A stretch of 64,000 nt of DNA from an uncultured Acidobacteriota bacterium (GTDB lineage Bacteria; Acidobacteriota; Vicinamibacteria; Vicinamibacterales; CAVVIG01): assembly GCA_963770995.1 (NCBI GenBank), contig CAVYRS010000001.1:502815-566814 (forward strand). Direction: 5' to 3'. The position numbers were made by a program, and so were the translations under genes. Below the pieces are notes generated by a model, which saw only the letters and a list, made by a program, of their open reading frames with translations, had not been told where the DNA came from and ran no database searches. Positions 17,020-57,859 of the stretch are shown piece after piece. Every line of letters starts with the position of its first letter. Position 1 is the stretch's first letter.

Positions 17020-17598
17020 ATGCAACCACGAAGCCACGAAACCACGAAGAAGAACCGGTCTTTTTCGTGTCTTCGTGTTTTCGTGGTTGCGGTTGGGTTG
17101 GTGTCAGGTGGTGTAGGTACGGCGCAGACGCATCGGCTCCCGCAACCGGGCGTGCGCTACGTCCCGTCTCCACAGAGCGTCGTCGATGCGATGCTCGAGT
17201 TGGCGCACGTCACCTCAGCCGACGTCGTCTACGACCTGGGCTCTGGAGACGGCCGGATTCCGATCACTGCGGCGCAGCGCTACGGCGCGCGGGGTGTCGG
17301 CGTCGAGATCGAACGGCGGCTGGTGGCCGAGGCCGCGAGCAACGCGGCGAAGGCGCACGTGGCCGGCCTCGTCTCGTTCGTTCATGGAGACTTGTTCGAA
17401 GCCGACATCCGGCCGGCGACGGTGATCGCGATGTTCCTGCTGCCGCGGATGATCGACGAGCTCTTGCCGAAGTTCAAGCGCGATCTCCGGCCCGGAGCCC
17501 GCATCGTCTCGCACGGATACGACCTGGGTCCGAGTTGGCCGCCCGAACAGACGCGAGACGTCAGCGGCCTCACCATCCATCTCTGGACGATTCGATAG
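17020..17598 (+). CDS. class I SAM-dependent methyltransferase (start uncertain: ATG 17020 lies inside the repeat; TTG 17098 / GTG 17101 are alternatives)
   Basis: YVPSPQSVVDAMLELAHVTSADVVYDLGSGDGRIPITAAQRYGARGVGVEIERRL...FVHGDLF. The first ~24 codons (MQPRSHETTKKNRSFSCLRVFVV) are the translated hairpin element. Confidence 0.8.
   Translation: MQPRSHETTKKNRSFSCLRVFVVAVGLVSGGVGTAQTHRLPQPGVRYVPSPQSVVDAMLELAHVTSADVVYDLGSGDGRIPITAAQRYGARGVGVEIERRLVAEAASNAAKAHVAGLVSFVHGDLFEADIRPATVIAMFLLPRMIDELLPKFKRDLRPGARIVSHGYDLGPSWPPEQTRDVSGLTIHLWTIR
17022..17090. repeat. octamer-array hairpin element (CACGAAG class)
   Basis: GCAACCACGAAG-CCACGAAA-CCACGAAG, loop AAGAACCGGTC, then the inverse TTTTTCGTG-TCTTCGTG-TTTTCGTGGTTGC. 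It lies in a divergent 5' region. Confidence 0.9.
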
Positions 17599-43979: not shown

Positions 43980-44196
43980 CGCTCTGGTCGAACTCTTTCA
44001 CCTCGGGAAATTCATGCGTTGGAGCAGCGCCTGAAAGCGCGGATCCGATCGCGCAAAGTCCTGGGGTGGACCCTGTTTCATGTGCACCAATCCGGCGCGG
44101 GGCGATCGTGGCAGGAGGCGCATTTCGTGCGGTAGAGCGTCTCCCCGTCAGGGTACCCCCTGAGTAGCCGGGAATCCCGCAGCGACCATCAGAACA

Positions 44197-44274
44197 AATG
44201 CAACCACGAAGACACGAAGGCACGAAAAAGACATGTTGTTCTTCTTCGTGGTTTCGTGACTTCGTGGTTGCATT
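44197..44274. repeat. octamer-array hairpin element with AATGCAACCACGAAG termini
   Basis: AATGCAACCACGAAG-ACACGAAG-GCACGAAA ... CTTCTTCGTG-GTTTCGTG-ACTTCGTGGTTGCATT. Its last 2 nt overlap the TAA of the hydrolase gene. It spawns the spurious ORF 44198.. (MQPRRHEGTKKT). Confidence 0.9.
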
Positions 44275-45274
44275 AGAGATACTTCTGGAACCAGGCCACT
44301 GCTGCCTCGACTGCGGCGTCGAAAGCCTGCGGCGACGTGAGACCATGCGTCGCGCCGGGGATTGTGGTCACGCCATTCGGTCCCTTCAACAGCTTCGAGG
44401 CAGCGACCGCGTTCGTGGCGTTGTTCACCTTCGCATCCTTCTCCGCGACGACGAACAGGATGGCAGTTGTCTGCGGAATCTGATCGACGTACCAGAACGG
44501 ATGGTACTCGGCCAGGGCGAGCTTCGCTTCCTCGTCGTTCATCACCGCGCCTGCGGCCGCGGTTGCGGGCGCCTGTCCGCTTCGCGCCAGCCGCACCATC
44601 GCCGCCTGCTGCGCCGACGTCGGCTTCATCGCCTTGCGCGGCGTGTCCTGGCCGTCGATGATCGGCGTCTGCGCAACCGCCGCCTTGACACGAAAGTCGA
44701 CTCCGGCGGTCACCACAACATGACCGCCGGCGAGGCCGGCGCCCCAGACACCGATCCGCGCGCGATCCACGCCCGGTTCGCCCTGCAGGTACGAGATTGC
44801 GTTGCGGATATCGAGGATCTGCGCGTCAGGGATCGATCGCCCGCGGCGGACTCGCATTTTCGCCGTGTGCTGTGAGAAACGCAGCCGGTCGTCCCACCGA
44901 AGCGGTTCGGCCAGATAGAGAAAGCCGCCGCTCTTGCCCCAGCCGCGATAGTCGATGGCCATCGCGACCATGCCGCGCGCGGCCAGCTGCGCCGCGTACT
45001 TGTCGATCGACGCGGCCGTCTCGCCCGCTGCCGGCGCGAGGACGACAGCGGGGGCCTTGCTGTCGGCGGTGAATCCCTTCGGCGTATAGATCTTCGCGTA
45101 GCACTGCACGGCTTCGCTGAAGAACTTCACCTCTTTCGAGCTGACGCCGTCGGGTGGGCTTCCGGCTTTCGCGGGTTGTGCAATCGCCGTACTCGAGATA
45201 AGCCACGAAGACACAAAGACACGAAGAACCTGTAGCCTTCGTGCCTTCGTGCCTTGGTGGCACATCGAAGTCAT
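44273..45274 (-). CDS. alpha/beta-hydrolase fold protein (dienelactone-hydrolase-like), nucleophile position Gly
   Basis: ATG 45274 forms an ATGA overlap with the stop of the upstream paralogue. Signal peptide MTSMCHQGTKARRLQVLRVFVSSWLISSTAIAQPA. VAMAIDYRGWGKSGG. The elbow reads GVWGAGLAGG instead of G-x-S-x-G. Asp (VAEKDAKV) and His (GATHGL) are present. Confidence 0.8.
   Translation of the reverse strand: MTSMCHQGTKARRLQVLRVFVSSWLISSTAIAQPAKAGSPPDGVSSKEVKFFSEAVQCYAKIYTPKGFTADSKAPAVVLAPAAGETAASIDKYAAQLAARGMVAMAIDYRGWGKSGGFLYLAEPLRWDDRLRFSQHTAKMRVRRGRSIPDAQILDIRNAISYLQGEPGVDRARIGVWGAGLAGGHVVVTAGVDFRVKAAVAQTPIIDGQDTPRKAMKPTSAQQAAMVRLARSGQAPATAAAGAVMNDEEAKLALAEYHPFWYVDQIPQTTAILFVVAEKDAKVNNATNAVAASKLLKGPNGVTTIPGATHGLTSPQAFDAAVEAAVAWFQKYL
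45202..45261. repeat. octamer-array hairpin element lying entirely inside the signal-peptide codons of the hydrolase gene
   Basis: GCCACGAAG-ACACAAAG-ACACGAAG-AACC TGTAG CCTTCGTG-CCTTCGTG-CCTTGGTGGC. It is translated on the - strand as HQGTKARRLQVLRVFVSSW. Confidence 0.9.
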
Positions 45275-46457
45275 CGCCGCACCTGCTCGGTCGATGTTTT
45301 TGTCGGCGTCGAGGAGCCCAGGTATTTCAAGAACCACTCAGCCGCGAGATTGGACCCGACCTCGAACCCCGTGTTCGAGTACGCCTGAAAATGCGTGAGC
45401 TCGGGATAGACAATGGTTTGCGCGGTGATGCCGTGCTCGTTCAGATACTTCGTGGCTTCGATCGCGCCGCCGGGGCCGTTGGTGAGCTCGTCCTTCTCCG
45501 CCGGCAGGAACAGCACCCTGGTCGACTCGGCGATTTGATCGAGCGTCGCGCCCGGCCGCACGTCGCGGTTCCGGAAGTTGCCGAACAGATCGATCTTGCT
45601 GCGGAAGGAAAACCCGCCGTCCACCTCGGCGCCCTGCCCCGTCCTCGCGCGCTTGATCGCATCGTCCACCATCGCCGCCTGCGGACCGGCCGGCGCCGGC
45701 GCGGGACCGCGCGGCACCGGACGCGGGCCGGCGACTTGTGCCACGACCGCCTTCGCTCGCGTGTCGAGTGCGGCGACCGCGATGACGACGCTGCCGGCGT
45801 TGCTCGATCCCCAGATGCCGATGCGATCCGGATCGACGCCCGCCTCGCCCTGCAGATACGACATTGCCGCGCGATAGTCGTCCACTTCGTGCGCGTTGTT
45901 CAGATTTGTACGCTTGACGACGACACGCAGACGTCTGTCGGTAACTGTAGGTCCGGCTTTAGCCGGACCTACACGCGGCGGTCGCTCGTGGGATCCGGTT
46001 CGAGCAGCCGCAGATCGTCGGAGCCGCTGCCGCTGAACCCGTAGCTCTGGTAGTCGATGGCCATCGCGACGAGCCCGCGTTCAGCGAACCGCGCGGCGTA
46101 CTTCTCGATACCGATCGACAGCGCGTTGATCCCGTGGCCGACGACAACGCCCGGCCGGCGATCGGTGGCCTTGAATCCCTTCGGGAAAAACAGCTTCCCG
46201 TAGAGCGGCGTGCCGCCGTCCACGTAGAACGTGATCTGTTTCGTCGTGACGCCGTCCGGGAGCGTGTAGTCCCAGTCTCGCGGCTGCGTGCCGCCCTCAC
46301 GCTTCATGTCGGCGTCGGTCGCCTGCTTGTGGAACTCGGCGCGATTCTTCTCGACGAGATCGGTGCCGATTTGCGCGACGACGGACGAGGGCGCCAACCC
46401 GAGCGCCGCCATCGTGCCAAGGCCAATGACGAACGCCGGATGCCGGCACACAGCCAT
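45271..46457 (-). pseudogene. alpha/beta-hydrolase paralogue interrupted by a palindromic element (in-frame TAG plus frame change)
   Basis: The N-terminal part is track ORF 45969..46457 (...VAMAIDYQSYGFSGSGSDDLRLLEPDPTSDRRV*). The C-terminal part is ORF 45271..45885, and its frame extended upstream reads VGPAKAGPTVTDRRLRVVVKRTNLNNAHEVDDYRAAMSYLQGEAGVDPDRIGIWGSSNAGS. The two frames meet at the palindrome at 45946-45973. Confidence 0.7.
45946..45973. repeat. palindromic element TGTAGGTCCGGCTTTAGCCGGACCTACA
   Basis: Perfect 12-bp stem with a 4-nt loop. It supplies the TAG that ends the upstream hydrolase ORF. Confidence 0.9.
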
Positions 46458-55531: not shown

Positions 55532-57574
55532 TTACGGAAACTTGGATCCGGGCATGCGGTAGGGTCGCCCCTCTTCATACATCTGCAATCGCTCCCGGAA
55601 GCGGGCCGCCACCTCGTGCGCCCCCGCCGCCGCCGCCGTGTCTACCCCAGCCCTGGCGGTTTTCACGGCTTCGGTGAAGCGTCCGGCAGCGGCATACGCC
55701 GCCGCCAGCGCGTCGAGCGATGCGACATCGCGTCCCTCGGTGACACTCACCGCCCGTTCTCCCAGCGAGATCGCTTCGGCGGCGTTGCGAAGGGCGGGAT
55801 CGGCAGCGGTCGCCCGGATCCAGGCCAGCCCGGCCAGCGCCGGCGCGAAATCGGGTGTCAGCGTCAGCGCGCTCCTGAGCACACCCATGGCCTCGGCCGT
55901 TCGTCCCTGCGCCGACAACAGAAGGCCGAGATTCGCGCGCGCCTGGACGTTGTCCGGACGCAAGGCGATGGCTCGGCGATAGTGCTCCAGAGCCGGCTCC
56001 GTGCGTCCGAGCATGTGAAGCACGGCCCCCAGATTGTTGTGCGCCTGCGCGTAGTCGGGGTCGATGCCGAGCGCGGCGTCGAATGCCAACACGGCTTGTT
56101 CGCGCAACCCGCGCACCGACAACGCGATTCCGAGGTTGTAGTGCGTCTGCGCGGAGCGCGGATCGAGCCTGAGCGACTCGCTGTATTCGGCAATCGCCTC
56201 GTCGTACTGCCCGCCCTCGAGGTACAGATTCGCGACCGCGTCGTGGCGCAGCGGATCGTCGGGCGCATTGCGCAGGAGTTTGGAGTACGCGGCGAGATCG
56301 TCGGCACGCGCCTTACTGCGAACGTCCGTAGCCAGGCGCTGATGATCTGCGCCGGTCCGCGCTGCCACCTGCAGCCACAGATCGCCCATTTCGTCGGTCG
56401 TGTTCTGCCCCCACACGACGCGCACCGGCGGCTGATGCGGATTGCGCACGTTCTCGGCGGAGTTGTCGTAGGTGTAGCGCATTGCAACCGTGGTCCCCTT
56501 GGGCAAGGCGATCGGCGACGCGAAGCGGTAGACGTCCTGCCACCGGAAATCCCAGTCGTCGATGGCGATGAGCGGCCGCGTGGACCCGTCGGGCAGGGTC
56601 GCGTTCGCCTCCATGCGGCGCGCCAGGTTGTGCGCGTGCGGCTGCACGGCCAGCACGTCGACGTCGACGGGCAGCGCGTACCGATCGGTGATGACGTGCG
56701 CGCGATCGCCGGCGGGAACGTCGATTGTCTCGCTGCCGAGACGAAGGCCGACCGGCGTGCGTGTAGGCGGCGCGTCCGTCAAGAACAGCCCGATAGTGGG
56801 CTGGACCGGCTCGGGCTTCCCGGTCGGTTGCAGGTGCAGCTGGACGACGAGGTCGCTTCCCGGATCGAGCCGCCATTGCATGCCGTCAGGCGACGCGTGC
56901 GGCGCCTGACCCGGGGTCCAGCCGAGGAGTTGCCCTTCCGGATAGCGCGCCTCGACCACCATGCTTCCCGTGTATCCCGGCTCGGCGTCGCGGCGATCGA
57001 GCTGGCGCGACGACTGTGTTCGATCGATCCCAAGGTTCGCGTGGTGCACGACCCGGGCGTTGCCCGGCTGGAACTCAATCGCGCGCACGTAGCGGGGCGA
57101 GGTGAGTGGAATCGGAATCACGAACGTGCGGAACACATCGGGTCCATCCGCGCGCACGGTATACGCCTCGGCCATGCGGACGACGAGGTCGGGCGTGCCG
57201 AGCTGCCAGCCATCGGCGAATCTCGGGGGCGGCGAGAGGTCGGAGTGATCGCCTTCGACGGCGCCGGCGGCAATCCAGCGCTGCAATGTGTCGAGCTCGG
57301 CATCTGAGAGTCGCCGTTCGTTTTGAAAGTTACCCTTTCCCGCCACGGGCTTCCACGGCGGCATCACACGCCGCGCGGTCACCGCCGCAATCTGCGTCAG
57401 CCGCCTCTTCACATCGTCATACGTGAGCAGGCTGAAGGGACCGATCTCGCCGGGGCGATGGCAGTTCGCGCAGCGGGACCAGATGATCGGTGCGATGTTT
57501 TTGGTGAACGTGAGGCGCGGTTGAGCCGACACAGAGGGGACGGAGAACACGGAGACAAACAGCCACAGAGACAC
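55532..57574 (-). CDS. haem-c/PHM-like copper monooxygenase-fold + C-terminal TPR protein (intact paralogue; start uncertain, GTG 57574 proposed)
   Basis: WSRCANCHRPGE (CxxCH), VVHHANLG, VVQLHLQP, QPHAHNLA, WDFRWQ, NTTDEMGDLWLQV, then about 7 TPR units. The hydrophobic signal segment SLWLFVSVFSVPSVSAQP is encoded by a repeat arm. The track ORF 5' extension to 57994 crosses repeats. Confidence 0.75.
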   Translation of the reverse strand: MSLWLFVSVFSVPSVSAQPRLTFTKNIAPIIWSRCANCHRPGEIGPFSLLTYDDVKRRLTQIAAVTARRVMPPWKPVAGKGNFQNERRLSDAELDTLQRWIAAGAVEGDHSDLSPPPRFADGWQLGTPDLVVRMAEAYTVRADGPDVFRTFVIPIPLTSPRYVRAIEFQPGNARVVHHANLGIDRTQSSRQLDRRDAEPGYTGSMVVEARYPEGQLLGWTPGQAPHASPDGMQWRLDPGSDLVVQLHLQPTGKPEPVQPTIGLFLTDAPPTRTPVGLRLGSETIDVPAGDRAHVITDRYALPVDVDVLAVQPHAHNLARRMEANATLPDGSTRPLIAIDDWDFRWQDVYRFASPIALPKGTTVAMRYTYDNSAENVRNPHQPPVRVVWGQNTTDEMGDLWLQVAARTGADHQRLATDVRSKARADDLAAYSKLLRNAPDDPLRHDAVANLYLEGGQYDEAIAEYSESLRLDPRSAQTHYNLGIALSVRGLREQAVLAFDAALGIDPDYAQAHNNLGAVLHMLGRTEPALEHYRRAIALRPDNVQARANLGLLLSAQGRTAEAMGVLRSALTLTPDFAPALAGLAWIRATAADPALRNAAEAISLGERAVSVTEGRDVASLDALAAAYAAAGRFTEAVKTARAGVDTAAAAGAHEVAARFRERLQMYEEGRPYRMPGSKFP

Positions 57575-57859
57575 GGAGACACAGAGGGGCGCGCCGCAGG
57601 AGATTCGGCGGGAGCGCCGCGATGCGGCGCACTGTGGCCGAACCGATCGGAAACGTGAACCTGGAACATCCGAGAGGTTCACGTTTCCGGTCGGTTCGAC
57701 CACAGCGCCCGGCCTGCTCCGCAGGCCGTCCCGCCGAACTGCGAGCGCGCCTCGCGTTCCGCGCCACCCGAACTCTCTTGTTTCCACGCTGTCTTCTCTG
57801 TGTCTCTGTGTCTCCGTGGCTGAATCACTCCGTGAGCTCTGCTTCCTCCGTGTCCTCCG
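57528..57859. repeat. nested composite inverted repeat in a divergent 5' region
   Basis: The outer arms are built of ACACAGAG/ACACGGAG units (57528-57589) and their inverse CTCTGTGT/CTCCGTG units (57775-57859). The inner 25-bp inverted repeat is CCGAACCGATCGGAAACGTGAACCT / AGGTTCACGTTTCCGGTCGGTTCGA (~57638-57700), with 1 mismatch. Confidence 0.8.

Follow-up and report, generated by a model that had tools for sequence, protein, structure and literature searches.

The stretch of DNA analysed here (64,000 nucleotides from a soil acidobacterium, hereafter the window) contains an alpha/beta hydrolase gene whose first codons coincide with a hairpin composed of short repeated words. This arrangement raises the question of whether such a repeat is translated as the beginning of an exported protein and, if so, how it came to lie there. 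The original prediction placed a complete hairpin-array element over codons 5-25 of the hydrolase and regarded it as the core of a signal peptide. The positions of the features discussed below are collected in the table.

Features of the hydrolase locus and of related loci in the window
Feature	Position	Strand	Description
Hairpin-array element	45202..45261	-	purine arm 45237-45259, loop, pyrimidine arm 45204-45226
Alpha/beta hydrolase CDS (dienelactone hydrolase / Peptidase_S9-like)	44273..45274	-	333 aa
Hydrolase ATG start	45272..45274	-	shares ATGA with the upstream paralogue fragment, whose TGA is at 45271-45273
Proposed Sec signal peptide, codons 1-32	45179..45274	-	MTSMCHQGTKARRLQVLRVFVSSWLISSTAIA, predicted cleavage before QP; -3/-1 rule and conserved A-x-A↓Q in orthologues
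Upstream tandem paralogue, split into two ORFs	45271..46457	-	GTAG-type REP palindrome, 26 nt, at 45947-45972
Second, near-perfect element	44197..44274		abuts the hydrolase stop codon (TAATG)
SAM-methyltransferase-like gene	17020..17598	+	N-terminus MQPRSHETTKKNRSFSCLRVFVVAVGLVSGGVGTAQ corresponds to the element at ~17022-17090
Large nested inverted repeat, pyrimidine arm (CTCTGTG/CTCCGTG words)	57528..57585	-	read as h-region LCVSVSLWLFVSVFSVPSVSA of the haem-c/PHM-TPR protein

The placement of the element was confirmed by locating its individual units relative to the ATG at 45274. On the minus strand, the purine arm is composed of CACCAAG (45259-45253), CACGAAG (45251-45245) and CACGAAG (45243-45237), and the pyrimidine arm of CTTCGTG (45226-45220), CTTTGTG (45218-45212) and CTTCGTG (45210-45204). 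With 3+3 units and three variant bases overall, this copy belongs to a family defined by three CACGAAR units at an 8-nt period, a loop of 9-25 nt and three YTTCGTG units, the two arms being inverted. It overlaps codons 5-25 of the hydrolase, and the whole codons 6-24 read HQGTKARRLQVLRVFVSSW. Its flanks (ATGTGC / GCTTAT) bear only a loose likeness to the termini of subfamily A of this family (see below), which would suit an old, decayed copy.

The genome holds approximately 187 hairpins of the CACGAAR type, 102 of which have the 3+3 structure; within the 64-kb window the two-unit pattern occurs 29 times, compared to 0.85 expected. Relatives belonging to the same bacterial family contain from none to ~140 elements. 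Two subfamilies were distinguished by their consensus termini, AAAtGCAAC... (subfamily A) and GATCaGC..., and about half of the subfamily A termini carry an ATG (ATGCAAC, read as M-Q-P-R...). The element is largely stop-free and, owing to its 8-nt period, reads alike in every frame of both strands: the purine arm as H-E-x-T-K-x-R-R/S, which is basic, and the pyrimidine arm as L-R-x-F-V-x-S-W, which is hydrophobic save for one arginine. The family is found shortly behind genes, at a median distance of 21 nt from the upstream stop codon (interquartile range 11-34), the copy studied here lying at 11 nt. An assignment to the RAYT-mobilised REP/REPIN elements was rejected, since the GTAG/CGTC tag is lacking and neither of the two Y1_Tnp genes is flanked by CACGAAR sequences within ~1.4 kb.

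The reading of the element as a leader depends on the start codon. The ATGA overlap, on which the original prediction had relied to fix the start at 45274, is kept in all 10 orthologue contigs that retain the upstream paralogue (G001, P0004, P0016, P0013, P0028, P0005, P0029, P0014, P0021 and P0007), and the public gene call for the hydrolase (P0001, 333 aa) uses the same ATG. These three observations support the extreme N-terminal place of the predicted leader. A second in-frame ATG is present at 45263-45265. Downstream of the pyrimidine arm, no in-frame ATG, GTG or TTG was found before the conserved mature region of the protein begins.

In the proposed signal peptide, the n-region would be derived from the purine arm and the first part of the h-region from the pyrimidine arm, with an ancestral c-region (AIA). 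The n-region contains K10, R12, R13 and R18, with no acidic residue at positions 1-18 and a net charge of +3 before the h-window. The putative h-region (VFVSSWLISSTAIA) has a best 10-residue Kyte-Doolittle mean of 1.63, a plausible but weak value at the 4th percentile among 113 orthologue leaders (median 2.6), so the predicted export may be inefficient. The c-region, A-I-A↓Q-P (the arrow marks the predicted cleavage site), aligns with the A-x-A↓Q of the orthologues and has small residues at -3 and -1. The predicted leader would be exported and cleaved by the Sec route. A Tat signal was also considered and rejected: the RR pair encoded by CGA-AGR is not set in an S/T-R-R-x-F-L-K context.

Comparison of the hydrolase orthologues revealed the element-derived peptide, in the same frame, in more than 30 metagenomic sequences (~65-89% identity). 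In P0003 the peptide reads ...RHESTKARNQTVFRVFVFSWLLSNFASAQP and the underlying DNA forms a perfect hairpin, while P0012, P0015, P0022, P0034 and P0046 share the form HENTKTRKPILFRxFVxSWL. In every orthologue checked at the DNA level, the reading frame stays open between the ATG and the pyrimidine arm; the Trp codon lies 10, 14, 14, 14, 24, 24, 25, 26, 26, 27 or 32 codons from the ATG, always in frame. In at least four DNA-checked orthologues (P0014, P0016, P0021 and P0007) the purine arm is gone and the pyrimidine arm has been kept as the hydrophobic core. As revealed by a motif search, the element-bearing orthologues fall into two clades, making up 14 of the 16 members of one and 11 of the 14 members of the other; by eye, most of the members missed by this search look like decayed forms. 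Orthologues that are free of the element (G020, P0032 and others), a comparison suggested together with the original prediction, have canonical predicted signal peptides at the same place, followed by the same mature start (...PDGVTxKEVKFFSEA). Taken together, the conserved start, the open frame and the same-frame peptides of the orthologues bear out the claimed translation of the element as a signal-peptide core, export itself being predicted from the sequence. Alignment of the 5' region with the G001 and G020 orthologues showed neither a clean insertion boundary nor a target duplication, the leaders being too diverged, so that an insertion is not separable from a replacement.

Like cases had been put forward for a methyltransferase gene and a haem-c/PHM-TPR gene, and both hold up, the quoted peptides being present. 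The ATG of the methyltransferase gene (17020) is supplied by the element terminus ATGCAAC, the peptide MQPRSHETTKKNRSFSCLRVFVVAV is present, and comparison of orthologues shows a pattern like that of the hydrolase. The gene call for the methyltransferase in this genome gives a truncated product of 135 aa, without the conserved N-terminus. The haem-c/PHM-TPR protein (CDS end 55532) carries LCVSVSLWLFVSVFSVPSVSAQP; the position of its start codon is not firm, and ~190 nt separate the two arms. Among the orthologues of this protein, and among those of an ABC-type sugar-binding lipoprotein, the word hairpin found at this place in the signal peptide differs, with 4 of the 10 loci of the haem-protein comparison giving no usable N-terminus.

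Fusions of this kind were then counted over the whole genome, using a home-made gene finder (codon log-odds, ORFs of at least 90 aa) that yields approximate gene starts. A signal-peptide-like continuation directly after the arm, without an ATG, was observed in 16 of 146 gene-frame cases and in 6 of 292 other frames (Fisher p=2e-4). By a crude test there are at least 16 fusions of an arm with a signal peptide, where ~3 would be expected; the heuristic used is conservative and noisy (2-6% positives in control frames) and misses the hydrolase itself, and 16 is therefore a rough lower bound. The frames of the 16 strict fusions are split 9/5/2, which is suggestive only, and a frame bias of the elements located upstream of genes, for which the original prediction had proposed a count, was absent (45/52/49). 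An upstream stop codon lies within 40 nt in 12 of 17 fused copies. Only a minority of the family copies are coding.

These results are best explained, with a probability of roughly 80%, by a copy of a dispersed palindromic word array that landed in the first codons of the hydrolase gene and has been inherited as a translated leader. The explanation is founded on what was observed of the element (its identity and its post-stop position), on the conserved start and frame, and on the forms seen in the orthologues. The usual site of the family is ~10-35 nt past a stop codon, and this copy lies 11 nt after the TGA of the upstream paralogue; since the hydrolase start overlaps that stop, a copy inserted at its usual site would have fallen inside the first hydrolase codons. 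Where genes overlap in this way, the signal-peptide codons of the next gene may tolerate an element. As the element is poor in stops and basic or hydrophobic in any frame, its insertion would have reproduced an n-region and the start of an h-region, with the remainder of the h-region, as well as the cleavage site, probably still provided by the ancestral tail LISSTAIA↓QP. The leader, with translation beginning at the conserved ATG, would then have been inherited; the purine arm, and hence the hairpin, presumably decayed or was deleted in many lineages, and the pyrimidine arm stayed as coding sequence. Such a history would reflect neutral tolerance rather than adaptive gain.

Against this explanation stand the weak h-region, the absence of clean insertion boundaries, the perfect hairpin of P0003 among relatives with decayed ones, and the crudeness of the gene finder and of the signal-peptide heuristic. 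In addition, a hairpin of -40 to -44 kcal/mol begins 14 nt past the hydrolase ATG and should impede initiation. Moreover, the upstream paralogue, whose termination would give translational coupling, is broken here by the REP palindrome, which brings in an in-frame TAG; the intact paralogue of relatives has 386-415 aa.

Other starts of translation would change the meaning of the element. If the hydrolase began at the GTG of the second pyrimidine unit (codon 21, 45214-45212), translation would cover only the ...SSW of the element, leaving the purine arm and loop as a 5' UTR. A GTG occurs in every pyrimidine unit, many fused copies have an in-frame GTG ahead of their hydrophobic stretch, and gene callers have picked internal starts for some hydrolase orthologues. 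The resulting leader (MSSWLISSTAIA), however, would be without a charged n-region and, with a hydrophobicity of 1.24, would stand at the 3rd percentile of orthologue leaders; no purine-rich ribosome-binding sequence lies ahead of this GTG. The preservation of frame between the ATGA start and the arm across at least six lengths is unexpected for a UTR, and in P0014, P0016, P0021 and P0007 the arm follows within 2-6 codons of the overlap ATG. We consider the codon-21 start very improbable. It is hardly credible that translation begins altogether downstream of the element, for instance at the GTG of codon 49, leaving a cytoplasmic hydrolase and an intergenic repeat. That in-frame GTG does exist (KE-V-KFF), close to the beginning of the domain alignable with the upstream paralogue, but the preceding sequence, A-x-A↓Q...PDGV(T/S)xKEVKFFSEA, is conserved at the protein level in more than 100 orthologues, all with leaders. 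In the 10 contigs the upstream stop and the ATG leave no intergenic gap, and the start in the public gene call is 45274, not codon 49.

A different objection concerns the hairpin itself, which might be kept for a function in RNA or DNA (coupling or attenuation, mRNA stabilisation, or termination of the upstream gene), the coding of a leader being incidental. Comparison of the two arms of the 45202-45261 copy identified four G-T mismatches on the minus strand, i.e. A-C on the plus strand, which become G-U pairs in the minus-strand transcript as originally described, and one C-C mismatch; variable positions in the inter-unit spacers account for three of the four G-U pairs. In RNA folding the element reached -44.1 kcal/mol on the minus strand and -30.5 kcal/mol on the plus strand, and the sense strand exceeds the antisense strand in stability by 11-14 kcal/mol. 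It had been proposed on the basis of these mismatches that structure in the sense mRNA is favoured, and beyond this one copy the proposal was not supported. Over the genome, co-directional contexts gave 74 elements with a more stable sense strand against 58 with a more stable antisense strand (Wilcoxon p=0.19, not significant); among the 17 fused copies the figures are 11 and 4, with 2 ties (also not significant). The same bias of sense over antisense was found in hairpin-less orthologue 5' regions (G001 and P0014). The asymmetry of the stem strands, being not significant and present also in orthologues free of the hairpin, was therefore rejected as a sign of selection at the RNA level. A function of the hairpin would still agree with the perfect hairpin of P0003, with the purine-arm words that some orthologues have kept better than an n-region needs (HENTKTRK in at least six), and with the location of the family just past stop codons, as is the case for REP-type 3' hairpins. 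Nevertheless, the purine arm has been wholly lost in the four or more DNA-checked orthologues mentioned above and no compensatory changes between the arms are visible in the decayed orthologue copies, and we consider this explanation improbable. The history of the insertion is a separate matter. Instead of one old, vertically inherited insertion, the 5' end of the hydrolase gene may have been struck repeatedly, or its copies refreshed by gene conversion, which is possible though doubtful. P0003 combines its perfect hairpin with a different upstream context, the loop reads RLQV here and KPIL in many orthologues, the word family at the corresponding position varies between genomes in the haem-protein and lipoprotein orthologues, and the tree requires many changes of state. 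On the other hand, the junction of the arm with SWL and the frame are identical in all element-bearing orthologues, the KPIL loop is common to several subclades, and a graded series of decay is seen, e.g. from HENTKTRKPILF to HSANARKPIRF. With respect to P0003 itself, whose relatives have decayed hairpins, re-insertion or gene conversion fits better than simple vertical descent.

Translated palindromes have reportedly been found before: the Rickettsia palindromic elements, reported by Ogata et al. 2000, are said to lie in frame within protein genes, to be tolerated and translated there, and to be shared by orthologues through inheritance. They are reportedly 100-150 bp long and encode surface-exposed loops within mature proteins, with no signal-peptide association. 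They have no known sequence relationship to the CACGAAG element. The REPs with GTAG or CGTC tags, reported by Di Nocera et al. 2013, are said to be short extragenic palindromes, mostly located past stop codons and occasionally read through within genes. The CACGAAG element differs from them in having no tag, in its arms of three 7-nt words with an 8-nt period, and in that no link to RAYT was found; a GTAG-type REP is also present in this genome, where it breaks the upstream paralogue.

A predicted signal peptide derived from a repeat has one in silico precedent (Delihas 2007, PMC2759123): RU-2, an ERIC-like small mobile sequence, supplies part of the signal peptide predicted for Yersinia pestis YPO1552, while the signal peptides of homologues from other genera are unrelated. 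That case comprises a single locus, predicted in silico, and a MITE-like element of 168 bp, whereas the element described here is a 60-nt hairpin of tandem words. Fusions of the hydrolase type recur within a single genome, in 16 genes or more, are in frame across orthologues down to ~65% identity, and retain the hydrophobic arm longer than the hairpin. Tandem 7-nt words in non-coding DNA are described in the abstract of Rehm et al. 2015 (PMC4692102) for the GGGAATC-type heptamer repeats of Xanthomonas and Nostoc, which prefer the gaps between co-oriented ORFs, near stop codons. Unlike the CACGAAG hairpins, those repeats are direct arrays that form G-quadruplexes, and the abstract mentions no coding role for them.

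The fusion of an element with a leader reveals no new molecular machine. It does provide a well-documented natural series, leading from the intact hairpin through the decayed hairpin and the arm alone to an ordinary-looking leader, in which coding sequence takes up selfish or structural repeat DNA where a protein is most permissive, and it offers a concrete, testable route for the turnover of signal peptides. The post-stop position of the family (median as given above) explains the collisions in tightly packed tandem genes. A broader proposal, somewhat unlikely in our estimation, is that word-array hairpins act as portable proto-signal peptides, so that one post-stop insertion could rebuild or replace, and perhaps create, a leader. 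If this were true, N-terminal export signals across the family would be turned over repeatedly by these repeats, with proteins occasionally relocalised, and the pyrimidine arm would be retained by selection once the hairpin had gone. In practical terms, start codons beside word-array repeats are called inconsistently, and leaders derived from the element will also muddle clustering by N-terminus. On its minus strand, the second element of the locus, abutting the hydrolase stop codon, opens a signal-peptide-like ORF of 42 codons (44145-44273), which is followed by a CxxCH motif in a different frame.

On the minus strand, the element (45261–45202) reads GCCACCAAGGCACGAAGGCACGAAGG-CTACAGG-TTCTTCGTGTCTTTGTGTCTTCGTGGC, in which three CACGAAG-type words, recurring every 8 nt, are separated by a short loop from three CTTCGTG-type words; its presence in the 5′ end of the hydrolase gene, as first noted, is confirmed. 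The two-word pattern (≤2 mismatches allowed) has 29 matches in the window, compared to 0.85 expected. The host genome (9.3 Mb, 65.7% G+C) contains approximately 187 hairpins of the CACGAAG type, 102 of them in the full 3+3 arrangement, which form two subfamilies with different termini (AAAtGCAAC... and GATCaGC...), and further word families are also present. CACGAAG words were found in many genomes of the same bacterial family in very uneven numbers (~140 elements in G022, ~100 in G019 and only ~12 in G001, which belongs to the same genus), while the other families of the order contain none, or single matches at chance level. Since the element is palindromic, both strands give the purine arm first and the pyrimidine arm second, and no arm pairs of the reverse order were detected in the genome-wide element search. 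Among subfamily-A ends of the whole genome, 46 of 87 (~53%) carry ATGCAAC, so that an ATG precedes the first word by 5 nt; several genes fused to an element start M-Q-P-R-(K/R/S)-H-E from this codon. The genome also contains two Y1_Tnp (IS200/RAYT-like) genes (C1:4570253–4570591 and C1:3321661–3322008), neither of which is flanked by CACGAAR elements.

Coordinates of the analyzed features in the window
Feature	Position	Strand	Remarks
Word-array element	45202–45261	-	Inside 5′ end of hydrolase gene
Alpha/beta hydrolase ORF	44273–45274	-	Peptidase_S9, DLH matches
Second CACGAAG element, nearly perfect	within 44145–44274	-	Adjoins hydrolase stop codon (TAATG)
GTAG-type REP palindrome, 26 nt	45947–45972	-	Inside upstream paralogue
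Methyltransferase	17020–17598	+	Public call P0142, 135 aa
Haem-c/PHM-TPR gene	55532–57574		

The ATG of the hydrolase gene overlaps the TGA of the ORF upstream (ATGA), and the public gene call P0001 (333 aa) corresponds exactly to translation from this start. The product reads MTSMC-HQGTKARRLQVLRVFVSSW-LISSTAIA|QPAKAGSPPDGVSSKEVKFF, with codons 5–25 overlapped by the element. Past the pyrimidine arm, no in-frame ATG, GTG or TTG occurs until the conserved mature region is reached. A start at the arm-internal GTG (codon 21) is unlikely; its product, MSSWLISSTAIA, would be devoid of the charged n-region and has a hydrophobicity of 1.24 (3rd percentile of orthologue leaders). The full leader has a net charge of +3 ahead of the h-window, whose score is only 1.63 (4th percentile). 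This low score marks the leader of the present genome as a weak one, a real caveat.

Comparison with hydrolase orthologues lacking the element, proposed as a check in the original prediction, showed ordinary leaders in G020 and numerous others (e.g. MLRHLSVLLPMLFVTAAPAAA|QVGKD and MKTLLALVLIALGVSPANA|QTKP), after which the mature start (...PDGVTxKEVKFFSEA) is the same as in the element-bearing forms. This suggests that the family is exported and that the cleavage region is ancestral. An element-derived peptide in the same frame was identified in more than 30 orthologues (~65–89% identity). The leader of P0003, RHESTKARNQTVFRVFVFSWLLSNFASAQP, is encoded by a perfect 3+3 hairpin; P0012, P0015, P0022, P0034 and P0046 share HENTKTRKPILFRxFVxSWL, and the element is partly decayed in P0004, P0005, P0028 and P0029. 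The purine arm is gone in P0014, P0016, P0021 and P0007 (MKPILVFRAFVFSWL..., MTSNRLFRVFVFSWL..., MTCRVFVCSWL... and MKTKLILCVFVASWL..., respectively), where the pyrimidine arm lies 2–6 codons after the ATGA start. The G001 leader MRPIVIGACVFASVV probably represents a further decayed loop and arm (cf. MKPILVFRAFVFSW). The 4-nt overlap of upstream stop and downstream start is present in G001 and in nine metagenome contigs.

Were the element untranslated, the stretch between start and arm would not be expected to keep the reading frame. Among the orthologues, the ATG and the Trp codon are separated by 10–32 codons, with six or more distinct lengths, and are in frame every time, which is a signature of coding sequence and not of a UTR. 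In the tree of mature domains, element-bearing states, as detected by motif search, cluster in two clades (14/16 and 11/14), the members missed by the search being, by eye, mostly decayed-looking forms. From this series we conclude that the element has probably long been translated as part of the hydrolase leader, and that the hairpin is dispensable, the pyrimidine arm being kept as h-region coding sequence. The original prediction that the element is translated as the core of a signal peptide is thus upheld by the same-frame peptides, the conserved ATGA start and the in-frame lengths, with a probability of about 0.8; export itself we infer from sequence.

The position of the hydrolase copy, 11 nt past the TGA, is a normal one. 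Elements in tandem and convergent contexts are located at a median distance of 21 nt past the upstream stop (IQR 11–34), and 87 are nearer to this stop than to the start of the next gene, compared to 45 with the reverse arrangement. The hydrolase copy falls within codons of the downstream gene because the two genes overlap, and an upstream same-strand stop is located within 40 nt in 12 of 17 fused copies. Because the words recur every 8 nt, the three in one arm between them fill all three frames, so that each frame is leader-like: every frame reads, in some rotation, H-E-x-T-K-x-R-(R/S) followed by L-R-x-F-V-x-S-W. Approximately 85% of frame/strand combinations are open across the whole element.

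Using a home-made gene finder, 87 element/strand combinations were located within a stop-to-stop ORF at gene 5′ ends; many have an obvious ATG just downstream, and there the element is 5′ UTR. A strict fusion heuristic (directly past the arm, an uncharged hydrophobic run and then a small-x-small site, with no ATG between) gave positives at 16/146 gene-frame and 6/292 other-frame positions (Fisher p=2e-4). The genes concerned encode proteins of typically exported kinds (lipoproteins, a GH29-like fucosidase, a sulfatase-like protein and a sugar-binding protein). No more than ~6 gene-internal copies are convincing, although leaders account for an estimated ~1–2% of coding DNA only; signal-peptide codons are the one coding context that suits the element-derived peptide.

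The mismatches had also been proposed to favour the mRNA strand. This holds for the hydrolase copy, whose sense strand has four G-U pairs and a single C-C (−44.1 kcal/mol, compared to −30.5 for antisense), three of the four G-U pairs occupying variable spacer positions between words. As evidence of selection the proposal is not supported. Of 143 co-directional elements, 74 are more stable as the sense strand and 58 as the antisense (p=0.19), the fused copies being split 11 to 4 with two ties; hairpin-free 5′ regions of G001 and P0014 display the same sense bias, and no compensatory changes between arms were seen in decayed hydrolase orthologues. The asymmetry is therefore not evidence of a selected mRNA structure, nor does it exclude one.

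Rickettsia palindromic elements are palindromic repeats readable in frame through genes. In Y. pestis YPO1552, part of the predicted signal peptide is formed by an RU-2 repeat of 168 bp, a single in silico case; homologues elsewhere have unrelated leaders (Delihas 2007, PMC2759123). Intragenic REPs are further palindromic repeats that can be read through in frame (PMC3733652), and heptamer arrays close to stop codons are known in Xanthomonas and Nostoc (PMC4692102). No closer precedent was found in the literature searched. Compared with RU-2 and other known repeats, the CACGAAG element is distinguished by a word-array architecture that renders all six frames leader-like, by its recurrence (at least 16 genes in this one genome, and orthologues in which several word families occupy one site), and by long in-frame retention, the arm outlasting the hairpin.

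The methyltransferase, when read from ATG 17020, likewise uses the element as leader, in agreement with the original prediction. In all orthologues a Sec or Tat leader precedes conserved QTHRLPQPGVRYVPSPQ, and P0122, P0137, P0123, P0124, P0129 and P0121 carry an element-derived leader or the arm alone. In some orthologues, the leader is of the twin-arginine type (MDRRNFLKGAAAIPAA). The start of the public call (MLELAHV) is probably mis-annotated, since it omits the N-terminal QTHRLPQPGVRYVPSPQSVVDA conserved in all orthologues. At the leader of the haem/PHM-TPR protein, a decayed CACGAAG element is present in the orthologue from G019 and a hairpin of different words in that from G014; ordinary leaders are seen in other orthologues. 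In a sugar-binding lipoprotein of the present genome a CACGAAA element follows the conserved start MRD; in G001 a GGTGCTGG/GGTGCCAG word array occupies the same place after MRE, and G029 has an ordinary lipoprotein leader. These cases suggest that 5′ ends of tightly spaced genes for exported proteins are recurrent sites tolerating different word hairpins. At locus L034 (G001:C53), ~100 nt upstream of locus position 1500, the GGTGCTGG/GGTGCCAG array has ~9 units and is translated CQVLGAGCQVPGARCWVLGAVAILALSAC.

The tandem pair formed by the hydrolase and its upstream paralogue is kept in relatives, in which the paralogue is intact (386–415 aa). In the present genome it is split by the REP palindrome GTAGGTCCGGCTAAAGCCGGACCTAC, which introduces both a frame shift and an in-frame TAG; genome-wide, its half-site GTAGGTCCGGC has 132 occurrences (both strands counted). 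The paralogue is apparently split or frameshifted in G020 as well (L003, 284–1446). This genome and G020 are both few-contig assemblies whose completeness scores are reduced, and indel errors may be involved. Downstream, the terminal ATG of the second element opens a 42-codon ORF, MQPRSHETTKKNNMSFSCLRVFVVAFVLMVAAGFPATQGVP*, followed in the +1 frame by a cytochrome-c motif (GETLYRTKCASCHD); this region may represent either an assembly indel or a small cytochrome c that is frameshifted and has a leader derived from the element.
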